Below are positions 5,761 to 26,440 of a stretch of 39,986 bases of DNA, piece after piece; the first letter of the stretch is position 1, and each line of letters begins with the position of its first letter. The stretch comes from Actinomycetota bacterium. GTDB lineage: Bacteria > Actinomycetota > UBA4738 > JACQTL01. The notes under the pieces were generated by a model. That model did not search any database. It saw nothing but the letters and a program-made list of their open reading frames with translations, and was not told the origin of the DNA. The position numbers and the translations under genes are program-made. The DNA lies in contig JBKOXF010000101.1 in NCBI GenBank assembly GCA_046724795.1, forward strand, positions 1-39,986. The letters are read 5' to 3'.

Positions 5761-8361
5761 CTATGTCGCGGGAGGCTCCAGAACGCAGTCCTCCGGTTCC
5801 TTGTCGGGTCGCAGGCCCTTGTACGACGGGGCGCGGAGCTTGCCGGCGCTCGTCATCTGCAGGTACTCGACCTCGCAAACCAGCTTCGGCTCAACGAACC
5901 GCGCGCCCCTGATCTTCCGCAGCTCCGGCTCATCGATGGGCGGGTCCTTGCGCAACAACGGCTTCAGCCGGTCCATCAGGTCGGTGAGCATCCGATCGGT
6001 GAACCCGGTGCCAACCTGACCGATCCACGTCAGCGCTCCTTCGATGTACGCCCCGACCAGTAGCGCGCCGAACACATCCGTGCGCCGGCCCTCGCCGGGG
6101 GTCCACCCGAGGATCACGCAGTCCTGCGTGTTCAGCAGCTTGATCTTTCGCCATTCACCGGTGCGCTTCCCGGGGTGGTACCGAGACCCGAGTCGCTTCG
6201 CCACAACGCCCTCGAATCCGAGATCCTTCGCCGCGGCGGTGAACTTCTTCCCCTCGCCGTCCACGTAGTAGGTGACCTGCATGCGAGCGGGGGAGTCGAT
6301 CACCAGGATCTTCTCGAGCCGCTCTCGCCGTTCCTCCACCGGCAGGCCGATCAGTTCCTCTCCATCGAGGTAGAGCACGTCGAACACGGCCAGGTCCACC
6401 GGGATCTGTCGGCGCATCCGATCGATGTCGCCCTTCGCCTGCAGGTTGATGCGGCTCTGCAGCCGCTCGAACGACGTCCGACCCTGCTCGTCGATGGCCA
6501 CGATCTCCCCGTCGAGCACGGCCGTCGTTCCGGTGATCCACTGCCACACGTTGAGGAGCTCGGGGTACTGCGCCGACTGATCGCGGTCCGTCCGCGACAC
6601 CAGCCGGACCTCCTCCCCCTCGACGTACACGAGTGTTCGCACCCCGTCGAACTTCGGTTCGAACCGCCACTTGGGGTCGTCGAACGGCTTGTGGCCGCCT
6701 TCGGCCAGCATCGGCGAGTACCTCGGCGGCGACGTCCCGGCCGGAAGCTCCTCCGTCGCGCTCGCCATGAAGATGAGCCACCCCTGGTTCGTCTTCACCA
6801 GGTGGTACTCGGTGCCGTTGTACCGCTCACCGAACAGTCGGAACGACACCTTCTTGTCGGTCCATTCCTCGAGCTCGTACGTGCCGTGATCCCAGATCAC
6901 GACCTCGCCGGCTCCGTAGTGGCCCTTCGGGATATTCCCCTCGAACGTCCCGTACTCGAGCGGGTGGTCTTCCGTCTGGATCGCCAGGTGCCGCACGCCC
7001 TTCCTCGTGGGCGGTCCTTTCGGCACGGCCCACGACACCAGCACGCCGTCGCGCTCGAGGCGGAGGTCGTAGTGCAGCCGGGTGGCCCGATGCTTCTGGA
7101 TCACGAACGAGTTCCCCTCGCCGATCTCGCCACTCGGTCCCGGCTCCGGCGTCCCCGTGTCGGAGAGGTCACGCTTCTTCAGGTATTCGGCGAGCTTCGG
7201 ATCCTTGGACCGCGCGATGACCTCTTCCGAGGTCTCGCGTTGTTTTGCCTTCGACCGACCCCGGCCGCCCTTCTGATCGGGGGATCCGCTCGCTGGTGCG
7301 TCTCCGCCCTGTGCCCCGCGACTCGAGCTCCTCCCCCGAGCCCCCTGGATCACGCCCGGCATCGCCGGCGCCTTCGAGAGGTCGACCCCCAGCGCGTCCA
7401 TCGCTGGCTTCAGATCCTGGGGCTCGTCGATCACCGGTCGGAACAGATCGCCCTGCTTCTTCAAGCGAGGCCAGATCGTCTTGATGGTGAAATCGATCGG
7501 GCGTACGCCCTTCTCCACTTCCTGCCACGTCACCGGCGTCGACACGGTCGCGCCGGCTTCCGGTCGCATCGAGTACACCGCCGCGATGTTCGCCCCGCTC
7601 CGGTTCATGTTGTGGTCGATGAACACCTTGCCGGAGCGCGTTCGGACCTCCCATTGCATGGTCACGCGGTCCGGGTCGGCCTTCTTGATCATCAGCCCGA
7701 TCAGCCGCACGAACTCCCGGACCTCGTCGTGCGTGAACCGCGGTTCGATCGGTACGTAGATCTGCATCCCCGTGGCGCCGCTCGTCTTCGCGTAGGCCTC
7801 GAGCCCGAGCACGTCCACCGCCGCCTTCACGTGGCGGGCCACCGCCAGCACGTCCTCGAACTCGACGTCGAAAGGATCGAGATCGAAGAAGGCGTAGTCC
7901 GGGTACTCGTAGCTGTCGCACCGCGAGTGCAGCGGGTGGAACTCGATGCACCCCAGATTGGCCATGAACAGCAGCCCTGCGGTGTCGTCCACCATCAGGT
8001 AATCGATGATTTTGTTCCGTGCGTCCTCGCTCTCCACGGGACACCGACGCATCCAGTCCGGTGTGTTCGGAGGGGCGTTCTTCTCGTAGAAGAACTGGCC
8101 GGAGATGCCGTTGGGCATCCGCTTCATCGTCAAAGGCCGCCCGGCGAGGTAGGGGAGGATGTACTCGGCGGCGTTGTAGTAGTAGGCGACCAGGTCGCCC
8201 TTCGTGTAGCCCTCCTCCGGCCAGAACACCTTGTTCAGGTTGGACAGCCGGACCTCGCGGCCCTCGATCTGGGCCCACCACACCTCGCCGTCGTGCTCCG
8301 CGGGCAGCGCTTTCGGGAAGTCCACCGTGAACGCAGGGCCCGTCGCCTTCCGCCTGGGCAT
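5761..8361 (-). CDS. ligD: Multidomain NHEJ DNA ligase LigD (primase-polymerase, phosphoesterase, ATP-dependent ligase)
   Basis: The Pol domain shows RLSNLNKVFWPEEGYTKGDL...FFDLDP. The PE domain shows FVIQKHRATRLHYDLRLE...SWAVPKGP. The ligase domain shows the adenylation motif EPKFDGVR. Confidence 0.95.
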   Translation of the reverse strand: MPRRKATGPAFTVDFPKALPAEHDGEVWWAQIEGREVRLSNLNKVFWPEEGYTKGDLVAYYYNAAEYILPYLAGRPLTMKRMPNGISGQFFYEKNAPPNTPDWMRRCPVESEDARNKIIDYLMVDDTAGLLFMANLGCIEFHPLHSRCDSYEYPDYAFFDLDPFDVEFEDVLAVARHVKAAVDVLGLEAYAKTSGATGMQIYVPIEPRFTHDEVREFVRLIGLMIKKADPDRVTMQWEVRTRSGKVFIDHNMNRSGANIAAVYSMRPEAGATVSTPVTWQEVEKGVRPIDFTIKTIWPRLKKQGDLFRPVIDEPQDLKPAMDALGVDLSKAPAMPGVIQGARGRSSSRGAQGGDAPASGSPDQKGGRGRSKAKQRETSEEVIARSKDPKLAEYLKKRDLSDTGTPEPGPSGEIGEGNSFVIQKHRATRLHYDLRLERDGVLVSWAVPKGPPTRKGVRHLAIQTEDHPLEYGTFEGNIPKGHYGAGEVVIWDHGTYELEEWTDKKVSFRLFGERYNGTEYHLVKTNQGWLIFMASATEELPAGTSPPRYSPMLAEGGHKPFDDPKWRFEPKFDGVRTLVYVEGEEVRLVSRTDRDQSAQYPELLNVWQWITGTTAVLDGEIVAIDEQGRTSFERLQSRINLQAKGDIDRMRRQIPVDLAVFDVLYLDGEELIGLPVEERRERLEKILVIDSPARMQVTYYVDGEGKKFTAAAKDLGFEGVVAKRLGSRYHPGKRTGEWRKIKLLNTQDCVILGWTPGEGRRTDVFGALLVGAYIEGALTWIGQVGTGFTDRMLTDLMDRLKPLLRKDPPIDEPELRKIRGARFVEPKLVCEVEYLQMTSAGKLRAPSYKGLRPDKEPEDCVLEPPAT

Positions 8362-8441
8362 ACGCCCATGCTAGACGGGAAGGTGCTGGTAGAGACCGGG
8401 GCACCAGCTACAATCGGACCTCCCACACGAAAGGCAGGGCC

Positions 8442-9302
8442 ATGCCCAGGACCATGTGGAAGGGCGCCATCTCCTTCGGACTCGTGTCGATCCCTATCAA
8501 GGTGTTCCCCTCGACCGAGGAGAAGGGCCTGTCCTTCAACCAGCTGCACGACGAGGACCACGGACGCATCAAGTACCAGCGGGTGTGTTCGAAATGCGGC
8601 GAGATCGTGCCCTTCGAGCACATCGTGAAGGGCTATGAGTACGAGAAGGACCGCTACGTCGTCCTCACCGACGAGGAGCTCGACTCGGTCCCCGTAGAGT
8701 CATCGCGAGCCATCGACATCCTGCAGTTCGTCGACGCGGACGACATCGACCCCATCTACTACAAGAAGTCCTACTACCTCGTGCCCGAGGAGACCGGCGC
8801 GAAGGCCTACAAGCTTCTCAGGGAGGCGATGTCCGAGGACGGACGCGTGGGGATCGCGAAAGTGTCCTTCCGCGACAAGGAGCACCTCTCCGCGCTGCGG
8901 TTCTCCGGCGACGTCCTGGTGCTCGAGACCATGTACTGGCCCGACGAGATCCGCGAGGCCAAGTTCGAGGAGCTGGACAAGGACGCCAAGCTCCGTCCGC
9001 AAGAGGTGCAGATGGCGCGGACGCTCATCGACAATCTCACCGAGGACTGGAAACCCGACCAGTACCAGGACGAGTACCGCAACGCGCTGCTCGAGATGGT
9101 GGAGAAGAAGGTCGCGGGAGAGGAGATCGAGATCGTCGAGGCTCCAGAGCCGACCAAGGTGGTCGACCTGATGGAGGCCCTGAAGGCCTCGGTCGAGGCA
9201 GCCAAGAAGCCGGCGGCGCCGGCGAAGGCGTCCACCGCCAAGCGCTCCACCGCGAAGAAGTCCACGGCGAAGAAGTCGACGGCGAAGCGGAAGGCCGGCT
9301 AG
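8442..9302 (+). CDS. ku: NHEJ end-binding protein Ku
   Basis: MWKGAISFGLVSIPIKVF...YEKDRYVVLTDEELD...YYKKSYYLVPE is the canonical bacterial Ku core. The gene is divergent from ligD and has a basic C-terminal tail. Confidence 0.95.
   Translation: MPRTMWKGAISFGLVSIPIKVFPSTEEKGLSFNQLHDEDHGRIKYQRVCSKCGEIVPFEHIVKGYEYEKDRYVVLTDEELDSVPVESSRAIDILQFVDADDIDPIYYKKSYYLVPEETGAKAYKLLREAMSEDGRVGIAKVSFRDKEHLSALRFSGDVLVLETMYWPDEIREAKFEELDKDAKLRPQEVQMARTLIDNLTEDWKPDQYQDEYRNALLEMVEKKVAGEEIEIVEAPEPTKVVDLMEALKASVEAAKKPAAPAKASTAKRSTAKKSTAKKSTAKRKAG
9231..9290 (+). repeat. Four 15-nt tandem repeats encoding the STAK(R/K) tail of Ku
   Basis: Units are tccaccgccaagcgc / tccaccgcgaagaag / tccacggcgaagaag / tcgacggcgaagcgg. 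Confidence 0.8.
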
Positions 9303-10188: not shown

Positions 10189-10238
10189 CTCCCTCGGGCA
10201 GACTCCGCCGATAGCCCGCTCCCCGGAGGAGGTTGTCC

Positions 10239-14429
<4,191 letters not shown>

Positions 14430-20678: not shown

Positions 20679-22916
20679 ATGCTTCGGAGGCTGGCGAGGT
20701 TCACGGTCCGGCGCCGACGCTGGGTCCTGGCGGGGTCGGCCCTGTTCGCGGTCCTGGCGGTGGTATTCGGGGGAAGCGTGGTGTCCGCGCTCAAGAGCGG
20801 CGGGTTCACCGATCGAGGGTCCCAGTCGATCAGGGCGGAGGAGCTCCAGAACCGGATCTTCCACACGAGCGACCCGAACATCGTGCTGCTCGTGACGGCG
20901 CGGCAGGGGACCGTCGACGACGACGCGGTGAAGGCTCAGGGCATCGAGCTCACTCGGCAGCTTTCCGGGCAGCCGGGCGTGTCGACCGCGTACTCATACT
21001 GGACGCTCGGTTCGCCGCCGCCGCTCCGAAGTGAGGACTCGCGGCAAGCCCTGGTCCTGGCGATCATCCGGGGCGCCGACGACCAGGTCCACGAGCGGGC
21101 CGCCGCGATCGTCGACCGGATGTCCGGTACCCGCGGGCCGGTCACCGTCGCCGTCGGTGGTCAGGGCGAGGTGTTCCGCGAGGTCGGGACCCAGGTGGAG
21201 AAGGACCTTCGCAAGGCCGAATCCATCACCTTCCCGGTGGTGCTCCTGCTGCTCGTGCTCGTGTTCGGAAGCGTCGTCGCCGCAGGGCTCCCGCTGGGGA
21301 TCGGCGCGCTCTCCGTCGTCGGAACACTCCTCATCCTGAAGATCATCGCCTCGCTCACCGACGTGTCGATCTACGCGCTGAACCTGACCACCGCGATGGG
21401 CATCGGGCTCGGCATCGACTACGCGTTGTTCATCGTGTCGAGGTTCCGGGAGGAGATGGGGAACGGGCGTGGCACCGAGGATGCGGTGGTCCGGAGCGTC
21501 GAGAGGGCCGGGCGAACGGTGCTGTTCAGCGCGCTGACCGTGGCCGTGTCGCTCGCGGCGCTGCTGGTGTTCCCGCTGTACTTTCTGCGTTCGTTCGCGT
21601 ACGCCGGGATCGCCGTCGTCGCGCTCGCCGCCCTCGCGGCCGTGATCTTCCTGCCTGCTGTGCTCGCGTCGCTCGGTCCGCGCGTTGACAAGTTCGTCCT
21701 GTGGCGGCACAAGCCCAAGCCGGTCGGCGAGGGGTTCTGGCACCGCTTGGCGACGTTCGTGATGCGCCGGCCCATCCCGGTGGCGACCGTCGTCATCGCG
21801 ATCCTGCTGATCCTGGGTGCGCCGTTCCTCGGCGTGAAGTTCGGCCAGCCCGACGACCGCGTGCTCCCGGCCAGCGCGCCGGCTCGGCAGGTCCAGGACG
21901 ACATCCGGACGAGCTTCGAGGATCGCGAGTCGACGCCGCTGGCGGTGGTCGCGCCGGACACCGGGCCCGCTCAGAGTTCCGACGACGCGAGATTCGCGAT
22001 CGCTCTGTCGCGAGTGCCCGGTGTGGCCCGCGTGGATGGGGCGACGGGCTCCTACGTCGACGGCCGACTGGTGCTCCTCGCGGATCCGGCGACGTCGGGA
22101 CGCTTCGTCGCACCGAACGCCACGTGGTACTCGGTTATCCCGTCGGTGGAACCCGTGTCGCCGGCGGGCGAGCAGCTCGTCCATGACATCCGCGCCGCGC
22201 CCGCCCCGTTCCACGTGCTGGTAGGCGGGATGTCGGCGGAGCTCGTCGACTCCAAACAGGCCATCTTCAGCCGCCTTCCGCTGGCCCTCGGGATCATCGC
22301 GGTCGTCACGTTCATCGTCCTGTTCCTGATGACGGGGAGCGTGGTCCTGCCGCTGAAGGCGCTGGCCCTCAACGTCCTCAGCCTGTCGGCGACGTTCGGC
22401 GCGATGGTGTTCATCTTCCAGGACGGGCATTTCTCGAACGTTCTGAACTTCACCCCGACGGGCACGCTGGATACCTCGAACCCGATCTTGATGTTCTGCA
22501 TCGCCTTCGGGTTGTCCATGGACTACGAGGTGTTCCTCCTGTCGCGAATCAAGGAGGAGCACGACCGGACGGGCGACAACGTGACCTCGGTCGCGATCGG
22601 TCTGGAGCGCACCGGCCGCATCGTCACGGCCGCCGCGGCGCTGCTGGCGATGGTGTTCATCGCGTTCAGCACGTCCCAGATCTCCTTCATCAAGATGTTC
22701 GGGATCGGGCTCGCGCTTGCGGTGATCATGGACGCGACGCTCATCCGCGGCCTGCTCGTGCCCGCGTTCATGCGGCTGATGGGCGGAGCCAACTGGTGGG
22801 CGCCCAAGCTGTTGCGACGGCTCCACGACCGCCTGGGCTTCCGGGAAGGCGAGGCCACCCGGGCACCTTCGTCGATCGCCCGCGATCGACCGATCGTGAC
22901 GGGGGACGTTGCATGA
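20679..22916 (+). CDS. MMPL-family (RND superfamily) membrane transporter
   Basis: Two 6-TM bundles separated by periplasmic loops. Motifs include GIDYALFIVSRFREE and GLSMDYEVFLLSRIKEEHD. Confidence 0.9.
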   Translation: MLRRLARFTVRRRRWVLAGSALFAVLAVVFGGSVVSALKSGGFTDRGSQSIRAEELQNRIFHTSDPNIVLLVTARQGTVDDDAVKAQGIELTRQLSGQPGVSTAYSYWTLGSPPPLRSEDSRQALVLAIIRGADDQVHERAAAIVDRMSGTRGPVTVAVGGQGEVFREVGTQVEKDLRKAESITFPVVLLLLVLVFGSVVAAGLPLGIGALSVVGTLLILKIIASLTDVSIYALNLTTAMGIGLGIDYALFIVSRFREEMGNGRGTEDAVVRSVERAGRTVLFSALTVAVSLAALLVFPLYFLRSFAYAGIAVVALAALAAVIFLPAVLASLGPRVDKFVLWRHKPKPVGEGFWHRLATFVMRRPIPVATVVIAILLILGAPFLGVKFGQPDDRVLPASAPARQVQDDIRTSFEDRESTPLAVVAPDTGPAQSSDDARFAIALSRVPGVARVDGATGSYVDGRLVLLADPATSGRFVAPNATWYSVIPSVEPVSPAGEQLVHDIRAAPAPFHVLVGGMSAELVDSKQAIFSRLPLALGIIAVVTFIVLFLMTGSVVLPLKALALNVLSLSATFGAMVFIFQDGHFSNVLNFTPTGTLDTSNPILMFCIAFGLSMDYEVFLLSRIKEEHDRTGDNVTSVAIGLERTGRIVTAAAALLAMVFIAFSTSQISFIKMFGIGLALAVIMDATLIRGLLVPAFMRLMGGANWWAPKLLRRLHDRLGFREGEATRAPSSIARDRPIVTGDVA

Positions 22917-23542
22917 GCGCGGTCCGCGAGAAGCGCCGGCGCGCTCCTCGAGGCCAGGGCGAGCGGCTGCGCGAGGAGATCCTGGACGCTGCTGAGCGGC
23001 TGCTGGTGCAGACGGGCGACGAGGAGGCCGTGTCGATCCGGGCGGTGGCCGATGCCGTGGGCGTCACGCCGCCGTCGATCTACCTCCACTTCTCGGACAA
23101 GAACGAGCTGATGTTCGCGGTGTGCGAGCGGCAGTTCGAGCGCCTCGACCGGGTGCTGGAGGAGGCAGCGGCGAGCGAGGAGGGTCCGCTCGACTCGCTC
23201 CGCGCTCGCGGCCGAGCCTATGTCCGGTTCGGCGTCGAGAGCCCGGAGCACTACCGGATCCTGTTCATGGGCAAGGCGGGGAACTCGCCCGCCGACCTCG
23301 ACCCGGAACGTCTGGCGACCATGGCGTCCTTCGACCATCTCGTCGACGCGGTGAAGGCCTGCATGGACGCCGGGCGGCTGCCGCCGGGCGACCAGACCCT
23401 GGTGGCGCTGGGGCTGTGGGCCGTGGTCCACGGCATCACGTCGCTGATGATCTCGAAGCCGGACTTCCCGTGGCCCGACCGCGACGCGTTCGTCGACTAC
23501 CTGTGTGAGATGCAAATCCGGGGTCTGGGCGGGCTCGCCTAA
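22913..23542 (+). CDS. TetR/AcrR-family transcriptional regulator
   Basis: The HTH is RLREEILDAAERLLVQTGDEEAVSIRAVADAVGVTPPSIYLHFSDK. The start overlaps the mmpL stop as ATGA. Confidence 0.9.
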   Translation: MSAVREKRRRAPRGQGERLREEILDAAERLLVQTGDEEAVSIRAVADAVGVTPPSIYLHFSDKNELMFAVCERQFERLDRVLEEAAASEEGPLDSLRARGRAYVRFGVESPEHYRILFMGKAGNSPADLDPERLATMASFDHLVDAVKACMDAGRLPPGDQTLVALGLWAVVHGITSLMISKPDFPWPDRDAFVDYLCEMQIRGLGGLA

Positions 23543-25226: not shown

Positions 25227-25255
25227 TTGCGCTCTCCCCCTGGAAGCCTCACAAT
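25227..25255 (+). promoter_or_regulatory. Candidate promoter for the aromatic leader and DAHP synthase
   Basis: TTGCGC (25227-25232), a 17-nt spacer and CACAAT (25250-25255). The leader ATG is 9 nt downstream, so the 5' UTR would be very short. Confidence 0.35.
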
Positions 25256-25264
25256 CCGCGGACG

Positions 25265-25318
25265 ATGCGGTCGTTCTATGGCTATTGGTGGTTTACCGAC
25301 GGGCGTCGCCCGGCGTAA
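25265..25318 (+). CDS. Aromatic-rich leader peptide sORF (MRSFYGYWWFTDGRRPA)
   Basis: Reads ATG CGG TCG TTC TAT GGC TAT TGG TGG TTT ACC GAC GGG CGT CGC CCG GCG TAA. Six of seven consecutive codons are Phe/Tyr/Trp. The sORF lies ~100 nt upstream of DAHP synthase and is followed by a terminator. Confidence 0.6.
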   Translation: MRSFYGYWWFTDGRRPA

Positions 25319-25349
25319 CCTCCTGCGGCCAAGAGCAAGACCACACGAG

Positions 25350-25385
25350 GACCCCGGGTGACGGCCCCGGGGTCTTTGCTTTTCC
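25350..25385 (+). terminator. Intrinsic terminator of the aromatic attenuator
   Basis: GACCCCGGG-tgacggc-CCCGGGGTC forms a 9-bp GC stem and is followed by TTTGCTTTTCC. It sits 32 nt after the leader stop and 36 nt before the DAHP synthase start. Confidence 0.75.
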
Positions 25386-25420
25386 GGCCTCGGGACCCGC
25401 TCCCCGCCGAGTAGGAGGTC

Positions 25421-26440
25421 GTGATGGTGGTCGTGATGAAGAGCAGCGCCACGGACGCCGATATCGAGGGGGTCGTGGACAAGGTCAGGGAGGCCTCGGG
25501 CGAGGCGTTCGTTTCGCGCGGCAAGACCAGGACGATCATCGGGCTGGTCGGGGACACCGCCGCCTTCATGGCCATGCCCCTGGAAACGCTCCCCGGCGTC
25601 GAGCACGTCATCCAGGTGGGGAAGGCCTACAAGCTCGTGGCCCGCGAGACGCATCCCCACCCCTCGATGGTGAAGATCGGCCCGGCCGCGGTGGGCCGGG
25701 AGCAGTTCTCGGTCATCGCCGGGCCCTGCGCGATCGAGAGCGCGGACCAGTCGCTCGAGTCGGCCCGGGCCGCCAAGGCGGCCGGCGCGACCATCCTCCG
25801 CGGCGACGCATACAAGGCCCGGACCTCGCCGTACTCGTTCCAGGGGACCACGAAGATCGGGCTGGAGATCCTGGCGGCGTGTCGGGCCGAGACCGGGCTT
25901 CCGGTGGTGACCGAGGTGATGGAGCCGGGTGACGTCGATCACGTCGCCGACGTCGCGGATGCGCTGAAGGTCGGCGCGCGCAACATGCAGAACTTCTCGC
26001 TGCTGAAAGAGGTGGGGCGAAGCGGCAAGCCGGTGATGTTGAAGCGCGGTCTGTCCGCGACGGTGGAGGAGTGGCTGATGGCCGCCGAGTACATCGCGCA
26101 GCAGGGGAACACCGACATCGTGCTGTGCGAGCGGGGGATCCGGACGTTCGAGCCGGCGACGCGAAACACGCTCGACCTGTCGGGGATGGTCGTGGCCCAG
26201 CAGGAGACGCACCTGCCGGTGATCGTCGACCCGTCCCACGCCACCGGCCGGCACGAACTGGTCGCGCCGATGTCGAAGGCTGCGCTCGCGGCGGGCGCCG
26301 ACGGCGTGATGATCGACGTGCACCCGCATCCCACCGACGCGTTGTGCGACGGGCCTCAGGCGCTCCAGCCCGACGAGCTCATGACGTTGACCGCCGAGCT
26401 CGGCGCGCTGGCCCAGGCGTTGGGACGCCCGCTGGCGTAG
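25421..26440 (+). CDS. 3-deoxy-7-phosphoheptulonate (DAHP) synthase, type I-beta, with an N-terminal ferredoxin-like regulatory domain
   Basis: The ~70-aa N-terminal domain VVMKSSATDADIEGVVDKV... is followed by VIAGPCAIES...LRGDAYKARTSPYSFQG...LKVGARNMQNF...MLKRG...LCERGIRTFE...VDPSHATG. The RBS GTAGGAGG lies upstream. Confidence 0.9.
   Translation: MMVVVMKSSATDADIEGVVDKVREASGEAFVSRGKTRTIIGLVGDTAAFMAMPLETLPGVEHVIQVGKAYKLVARETHPHPSMVKIGPAAVGREQFSVIAGPCAIESADQSLESARAAKAAGATILRGDAYKARTSPYSFQGTTKIGLEILAACRAETGLPVVTEVMEPGDVDHVADVADALKVGARNMQNFSLLKEVGRSGKPVMLKRGLSATVEEWLMAAEYIAQQGNTDIVLCERGIRTFEPATRNTLDLSGMVVAQQETHLPVIVDPSHATGRHELVAPMSKAALAAGADGVMIDVHPHPTDALCDGPQALQPDELMTLTAELGALAQALGRPLA

Follow-up and report, generated by a model that had tools for sequence, protein, structure and literature searches.

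How bacteria regulate the common shikimate pathway is well established for enterobacteria (TyrR, TrpR) and in part for Corynebacterium; to our knowledge, it is essentially unknown in the many, mostly uncultured, Actinomycetota that carry a type Iβ 3-deoxy-D-arabino-heptulosonate 7-phosphate (DAHP) synthase. In Corynebacterium glutamicum, the leader peptide AroR upstream of aroF (cg1129) acts as an attenuator (Neshat et al. 2014, as described in PMC11802643 and PMC4046766). As these two accounts relate it, Phe limitation leads to ribosome stalling and more transcription, and the peptide carries a Phe-Tyr-Phe motif, Tyr being reportedly without effect. A computational precedent is the uORFC-13-1 motif upstream of Acholeplasma aroF, an upstream open reading frame (uORF) with Phe codons beside an intrinsic terminator, for which attenuation has been proposed (PMC8632094). 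Here we analyse a 39,986-nt stretch of an Actinomycetota genome (contig JBKOXF010000101.1, the whole of which we call the window), and in particular the leader that precedes its type Iβ DAHP synthase gene, whose product opens aromatic amino-acid biosynthesis. Judging from its sequence and modelled folds, this leader is very probably a ribosome-mediated transcription attenuator that would control the gene through the supply of charged aromatic tRNA. The same interpretation had been put forward in a first-pass annotation made from the letters alone, which had also pointed to the AroR leader; that precedent exists in the published accounts, and the interpretation is supported by the present analysis, every computationally testable element having held up.

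The leader peptide and its alternative folds

The leader carries a short open reading frame (sORF) of 17 codons plus TAA, encoding MRSFYGYWWFTDGRRPA. Codons 4-10 (25274-25294) read F Y G Y W W F, so that six of seven are aromatic and Phe, Tyr and Trp are all represented, which confirms what had been observed in the first pass. Across the six frames of the whole 40-kb window (68% GC), FYGYWWF is the sole seven-codon run with at least six aromatic codons, about 0.005 such runs being expected from base composition. The leader thus contains a short 5' open reading frame enriched in codons for the end products of the pathway. The only other run in the window with five aromatic codons in seven, WFGWFGF (+10869), lies inside an ammonium-transporter reading frame and is unrelated.

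The elements of the leader and the gene that follows it are listed here in order of position:

25227-25232, + strand: putative -35 box TTGCGC (TTGCCA in most relatives), inferred from conservation, with TTG invariant in a 13-sequence alignment
25250-25255, + strand: putative -10 box CACAAT (CAnnAT), separated from the -35 box by a 17-nt spacer and conserved in clade A
25265-25318, + strand: leader sORF, with ATG at 25265 and TAA at 25316-25318
25269-25342, + strand: long sORF hairpin (regions 1:2, anti-antiterminator), in which the aromatic codons pair with a segment past the stop codon
25274-25294, + strand: regulatory codon block TTC TAT GGC TAT TGG TGG TTT, the proposed ribosome stalling sites
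25301-25313, + strand: 5' strand of the antiterminator (core 25304-25313), within the last sORF codons
25346-25378, + strand: predicted terminator hairpin (regions 3:4) of 13 bp, with core 25350-25358 paired to 25366-25374
25354-25367, + strand: 3' strand of the antiterminator, spanning the terminator from the 3' half of its left arm through the loop to the first right-arm bases
25373-25384, + strand: U-rich tract UCUUUGCUUUU, broken by G and C
25413-25418, + strand: Shine-Dalgarno (SD) sequence AGGAGG of the DAHP synthase gene
25424-26440, + strand: the gene proposed to be regulated, a type Iβ DAHP synthase with an N-terminal ferredoxin-like domain (Pfam PF18152 and PF00793)

A 9-bp GC hairpin followed by a T-tract had been claimed downstream of the sORF, and it is present: GACCCCGGG (25350-25358) pairs with CCCGGGGTC (25366-25374), and G.U and A-U pairs lengthen the predicted stem to 13 bp. 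The hairpin does lie 3' of the sORF, the gap from the stop codon to the core being 31 nt and not the 32 nt first given. Folded alone, it has a free energy of -25.2 kcal/mol (z = -3.3), a stability equalled in 0 of 200 shuffles. The core GACCCCGGG...CCCGGGG is unchanged in 13 of 13 aligned sequences and visible in 24 of 24 clade-A rows, an invariance that is expected because the core must remain complementary to two partners. The U-tract reads GGGGUUUU(U)C in most relatives. Computational prediction therefore places an intrinsic terminator between the sORF and the structural gene.

Unguided RNAalifold prediction on the 13-sequence alignment yields two elements, the terminator and a long hairpin that spans the sORF. 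The minimum free energy (MFE) of the latter lies between -36.0 and -36.6 kcal/mol (z = -2.9), and its apical CGGGC/GCCCG stem sequesters the antiterminator strand. The pairing proposed in the first pass between CGCCCGG (25307-25313) and CCGGGTG (25354-25360) is indeed complementary and forms part of a longer helix. In the window, 25304-25313 pairs with 25354-25363 over 10 contiguous bp, one of them G.U, and past one bulged G three further pairs join 25301-25303 to 25365-25367. In the predicted folds, then, an antiterminator shares bases with the terminator (2:3), and an anti-antiterminator contains the regulatory codons (1:2).

Prediction of alternative secondary structures, which the first pass had suggested as a check, gave a switch between these folds. 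In folds modelled without a ribosome, or with one sitting at the stop codon, the terminator is part of the leader's MFE structure; masking the aromatic codons, as in a stall at Tyr7, makes the antiterminator the MFE structure. When region 1 is masked, the nascent segment 25298-25364 adopts the antiterminator fold at -30.9 kcal/mol, at a point where the terminator right arm has yet to be made; the terminator alone reaches -22.9 to -25.2 kcal/mol.

A further motif lies beyond these helices. Some 10-14 nt past the T-tract, clade-A relatives carry a fourth CCCGGG/CCCCGGG motif (e.g. ...TTTTCTCATCCTCCCGGGCGG in locus L085), whose window counterpart (25390-25396) is the degenerate CTCGGGA. The motif complements both the sORF tail and the right arm of the terminator, and it is transcribed past the termination decision point; it might act as a stabiliser of the readthrough conformation.

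Covariation, coding constraint and distribution

Both alternative helices show compensatory change. In an alignment of 24 sequences the sORF hairpin is 80.8% paired, with nine pairs changed on both sides, and its covariation of 0.192 stands against 0.102 in shuffled data (reached in 0 of 500) and at most 0.112 in slid controls. Fully compensatory rewrites are found in L084 (TACGGT/ACCGTA) and L086 (TTCGGCTGG/CCAGCCGAA), and in the stop codon the third base and its partner change together (C-G in 16 sequences, U-A in 5). The antiterminator, in the same 24 sequences, has five invariant core pairs and 82% of its cells paired. The pair beside this core (columns 50:102) is kept in 24 of 24, as G-C (17), A-U (5) or G.U (2), and two further pairs also switch (GC 11 / CG 5; CG 10 / UA 4 / GC 1). 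Its covariation is 0.182, against 0.096 in shuffled data (0 of 500) and no more than 0.083 in slid controls, the 13-sequence alignment giving the same picture. Switches separate close relatives (G.U in the window and G-C in L161; A-U in L091 and G-C in L088) and so appear to have arisen more than once. The antiterminator proposed in the first pass is therefore real by this evidence, and longer (10-13 bp) than first drawn.

A covariance model built from the family-A leader, the type found in the window, was searched against 380 kb on both strands. All matches of at least 57 bits lie immediately 5' of a DAHP synthase gene on the plus strand, and the window scores 92.3 bits (25265-25384). Matches on the minus strand fall on the palindromic terminator, and off-site matches have E > 0.04. 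Family-B leaders, described below, are matched at the same position with about 20-32 bits, suggesting a relationship between the two families. The Rfam leader families (Trp_leader, Phe_leader, His_leader, Leu_leader, Thr_leader and others) gave no match in the window leader at E <= 10, and Rfam at gathering scores gave none in eight related loci. A Guanidine-II (mini-ykkC) riboswitch was considered on the terminator hairpin (25352-25400) and rejected as a chance resemblance: its score is 16.7 bits where the gathering score is 32, the loop is GACGG, the second hairpin has no ACGR loop, and the gene context is wrong.

DAHP synthase homologs at 96-70% identity are numerous in metagenome-assembled genomes of uncultured Actinomycetota. 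Upstream DNA was collected for 175 loci, the close relatives coming from a metagenome scan and exact-protein look-ups; a protein-alignment scan of genome contigs contained one close relative among the matches listed. For the linkage count, we took the 101 high-GC loci with enough flanking DNA and considered ATG- or GTG-initiated sORFs in the forward 250 nt upstream. An sORF with at least five aromatic codons in seven precedes the ortholog in 58 of these 101 loci (70 with at least four), while the controls contain none: 0/101 on the reverse strand, 0/101 in the downstream 250 nt on either strand and 0/94 at 300-550 nt upstream. The comparative search proposed in the first pass thus finds the F/Y/W-run sORF conserved. 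The leader also stays with the DAHP synthase gene when the upstream neighbour changes, as in L168, L169, L173 and L175, where a divergent UPRTase gene takes that place.

Within the conserved leaders, the two ends of the sORF evolve differently. Length, frame, start and stop are kept in relatives. In the aromatic block, positions swap between F, Y and W (position 5 of family B is F in 13, Y in 10 and W in 1; position 9 of family A is F in 14 and W in 4), and both codons of the synonymous pairs TTC/TTT and TAC/TAT are in use, so that the block appears to evolve as coding sequence. Peptides of both families contain on average about 2.6-3.0 Phe, 1.6-1.8 Tyr and 1.1-1.6 Trp codons. The tail, on the other hand, is invariant including third codon positions (GGG...CCG GCG in family A; CGG CCC and ACG GTC GCC in family B), which argues for a constraint on RNA structure and not on the peptide.

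This strong conservation and covariation of RNA structure, together with a tail constrained by nucleotide and not by amino acid, could also be expected of a structured RNA that detects aromatics without translation, as a riboswitch or as a leader bound by a protein or tRNA, and that carries the reading frame incidentally; the weak Guanidine-II match would be of the same kind. We regard such an RNA as highly improbable. The aromatic positions change nucleotides yet stay aromatic, two divergent peptide families preserve the start, the frame and the stop, aromatic runs with a terminator occur as well in unrelated sequences of other phyla, and no Rfam family reaches threshold, the Guanidine-II match included. 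Still less credible is a small aromatic peptide that is functional in its own right, for which the hairpin would merely be the terminator. Conservation of the reading frame in many lineages would suit it, but beyond aromaticity the peptide is poorly conserved, its N-terminal residues and codons 14-15 being variable; the invariant C-terminal residues are invariant in their nucleotides, third positions included, and pair with the terminator; and the element always sits on the same strand immediately upstream of DAHP synthase.

The leaders fall into two families. Family A, that of the window, encodes 17 residues with the consensus M-x-x-F-F-G-Y-W-F-F-Y-G-G-x-x-P-A. Family B encodes 24 residues, MRQQFWFWFGYRPGSRTVACQTLR and variants, and occurs in Streptosporangiales-like genomes, among them that of the cultured Nocardiopsis metallicus DSM 44598 (L009), where the leader is located about 136 nt 5' of the gene. 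In the family-B loci (L002, L003, L009 and L094-L157) the leader lies 65-136 nt upstream of the DAHP synthase gene, and half of the sORFs start with GTG. In family B the invariant R-P-G codons (CGG CCC GG) complement the left arm of the terminator (CCGGGCCG), and a GGTCGC...GCGACC hairpin, extending across the stop codon, underlies the conserved tail TVA.QTLR. In both types the tail codons of the sORF would double as the antiterminator strand.

About ten actinobacterial orthologs (59-62% identity) have no upstream aromatic sORF (L099, L108, L118, L126, L129, L133, L140-L142 and L144), and may be under another mode of control or lie inside operons. In other phyla, aromatic sORFs of unrelated sequence, with a GC hairpin and a T-tract, also precede type Iβ DAHP synthase genes, with runs such as AYRYYYYFA, NYYWYMTGV and VFNYYFYNFYFF. 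These loci are L036 (Chloroflexi), L037 and L045 (Gemmatimonadaceae), L078 (Longimicrobiales), L070 and L055 (Clostridia), L075 (Peptoniphilaceae), L053 and L066. The pattern of sequences suggests that the combination of aromatic sORF and terminator evolved repeatedly and independently, the low-GC cases being weaker because their background of F and Y codons is high (reverse-strand controls reach four to five in seven).

Promoter, gene context and proposed mechanism

In the putative -10 box, the A residues at positions 2 and 5 are invariant across clade A, and the T at position 6 is conserved. The box ends 9 nt before the sORF ATG in the window (9-10 nt in family A), and the family-B counterpart, TAGGCT or TATAGT, stops 7 nt short of the ATG or GTG start. 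Because the distance between the -10 box and the start leaves no room for an SD sequence, the sORF is probably translated leaderless. Judged from these positions, its transcript is probably leaderless or preceded by just 2-3 nt. Leader peptides on leaderless mRNA are documented for attenuators of Streptomyces lividans.

At the other end of the leader, the SD sequence and the type Iβ DAHP synthase gene follow the hairpin, as first described. The start codon given there, GTG 25421 of the open-reading-frame listing, is less likely than ATG 25424, since all relatives begin ATG-GTS-GTS and the SD spacing agrees. The N-terminal ferredoxin-like domain that had been assigned to the enzyme is found as PF18152. 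In the Thermotoga maritima enzyme this domain mediates feedback inhibition by Tyr and Phe, and allosteric control together with attenuation would make a two-layer system. The gene appears to be monocistronic, because the downstream gene is convergent.

Mechanistically, transcription would start at the sORF ATG or a few nucleotides before it, giving a leaderless transcript. With Phe, Tyr and Trp plentiful, the ribosome would pass the aromatic block and reach the stop codon, where it would cover the antiterminator strand 25301-25313; alternatively, after release of the ribosome, the sORF hairpin (25269-25342) would re-form and sequester that strand. The terminator (25346-25378 and the U-tract) would then form, and RNA polymerase would halt before the gene. 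When aromatic aminoacyl-tRNA is scarce, on the other hand, the ribosome would stall within 25274-25294 and keep the 5' half of the sORF hairpin open. The strand 25301-25313, thus freed, would pair with the terminator left arm and loop (25354-25367) once these are transcribed, the terminator would be blocked and DAHP synthase mRNA would be made. We infer termination and readthrough, as well as which of the three amino acids matter, from the modelled structures and codons; the composition of the block would allow all three to be sensed.

Several observations weigh against this mechanism. The U-tract of the window is interrupted (UCUUUGCUUUU), and that of at least one relative (L086) is poor. Simple terminator and promoter scans of the window flagged neither the hairpin nor the promoter; for the hairpin, this is presumably because the G.U extension of the stem consumes part of the T-run. 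The terminator and antiterminator states are near-equal in energy at equilibrium, and a ribosome with a generous footprint that is stalled at Trp8, Trp9 or Phe10 still leaves the terminator as the predicted fold. For this reason the model, like that of classical attenuators, depends on the order of events during transcription. The contiguous antiterminator is just 6 bp (GCCCGG/CCGGGC) in about one third of clade-A members, and CCCGGG is self-complementary, so that other pairing registers are possible. When duplexes between each sORF tail and its own terminator left arm were compared with those of other leaders, the energies were -18.25 and -17.63 kcal/mol, a significant (84 of 10,000 permutations) but small effect. 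For leaders that have an aromatic residue following RPG, the tail definition used in this test clipped the antiterminator strand, and the column-wise covariation counts are the better evidence. Finally, AroR encodes Tyr, yet in the accounts cited above Tyr availability reportedly has no effect, so that an encoded aromatic amino acid need not be one that is sensed.

The imperfect U-tracts bear also on a different reading, in which the sORF and the alternative structures act mainly on translation or mRNA fate, for example by SD occlusion or Rho-dependent termination, and the hairpin is structural and not a true intrinsic terminator. In the full-leader MFE of the window, the CUUUUCC tail pairs with the AGGAGG region (25380-25418), and in about half of the 24 sequences the MFE likewise has the SD of the DAHP synthase gene largely paired with the pyrimidine tail that follows the hairpin (CUUUUCC, UCUUUC or UCUCCC). 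One paper, moreover, labels aroR a translational regulatory leader peptide. However, SD pairing is inconsistent among relatives, RNAalifold finds no conserved structure from the terminator to the start codon, and in most relatives a canonical GC stem is followed by UUUU(U). The antiterminator, in addition, competes specifically with the hairpin stem, as expected of a device that controls termination. We consider a mainly translational role unlikely, and a second, translational layer of control through SD pairing, added to transcription attenuation, as possible from the modelled folds.

The surrounding genes are those of an ordinary actinobacterial chromosome (window 5761-9302, 10233-14429 and 20679-23542). 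They include LigD and Ku (non-homologous end joining), an ammonium transporter followed by a GlnD-like uridylyltransferase, an MMPL transporter adjoining a TetR regulator, UPF0182 and a Zincin_2 peptidase. No further aromatic-pathway genes are present in the 40-kb window.

Comparison with known attenuators

Taken globally, we lean slightly towards the view that the window leader belongs to a previously undescribed, phylum-wide Actinomycetota family of leaderless mixed Phe/Tyr/Trp attenuators, with unrelated analogues in Chloroflexi, Gemmatimonadota and Clostridia. The family may comprise two related peptide types, one of 17 residues ('...GYWFFYGG..PA') and one of 24 residues ('MRQQFWFWFGYRPG..TVA.QTLR', which includes Nocardiopsis metallicus). 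A search for peptide strings, and for a leader peptide together with DAHP synthase, found no published description of the leader family, most subscription-journal papers being outside that search; a 2005 comparative survey of actinobacterial attenuators leaves aro genes unmentioned.

If the family is as proposed, attenuation through leader peptides that respond to all three aromatic amino acids would commonly gate the shikimate pathway, a solution evolved repeatedly, alongside allostery through the ferredoxin-like domain. The mechanism is classical and will not surprise a specialist, while the sequence family appears to be new; the value lies in the coherence of the comparative evidence, the wide distribution and the dual-coding sORF tail. 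As an example of dual coding the leader is a clean one, since covariation with RNA partners extends to the final codons of the sORF and even to its stop codon. The analysis provides defined coordinates for promoter, sORF, antiterminator and terminator, a specific covariance model and a cultured carrier of family B, Nocardiopsis metallicus DSM 44598. Possible uses of the leader are as a compact aromatic amino-acid biosensor and, by its removal, as a deregulation target in strain engineering, as done with aroR.

With the classical attenuators (E. coli trpL, pheL, hisL, thrL and ilvL), the window leader shares a reading frame of end-product codons, a terminator before the structural gene, and alternative 1:2, 2:3 and 3:4 pairings with the regulatory codons in region 1. 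The probably leaderless sORF is a trait of the actinobacterial trpL, leuL and ilvL as well. It differs from the classical leaders in its unrelated sequence, in a target that is the common-pathway DAHP synthase and not a terminal-branch operon, and in its mixed Phe/Tyr/Trp block. Leaders for several amino acids are known, e.g. ilv and thr.

The uORFC-13-1 motif is confined to Acholeplasma, among the AT-rich Mollicutes; it has a ribosome-binding site, and its U-run codes for at least one Phe (PMC8632094). The present family, in contrast, is found in high-GC actinobacteria, is leaderless by prediction and mixes Phe, Tyr and Trp codons.

AroR has the codons Phe-Tyr-Phe and no Trp, whereas the window block, F-Y-G-Y-W-W-F, contains two Trp and not the Phe-Tyr-Phe motif. 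The AroR target, aroF, encodes a type Iα enzyme; that of the window leader is a type Iβ DAHP synthase with a ferredoxin-like domain. What the two have in common is an aromatic-codon leader peptide directly upstream of an actinobacterial DAHP synthase gene, and, likened to AroR by its published description, the window leader would be its functional analogue.

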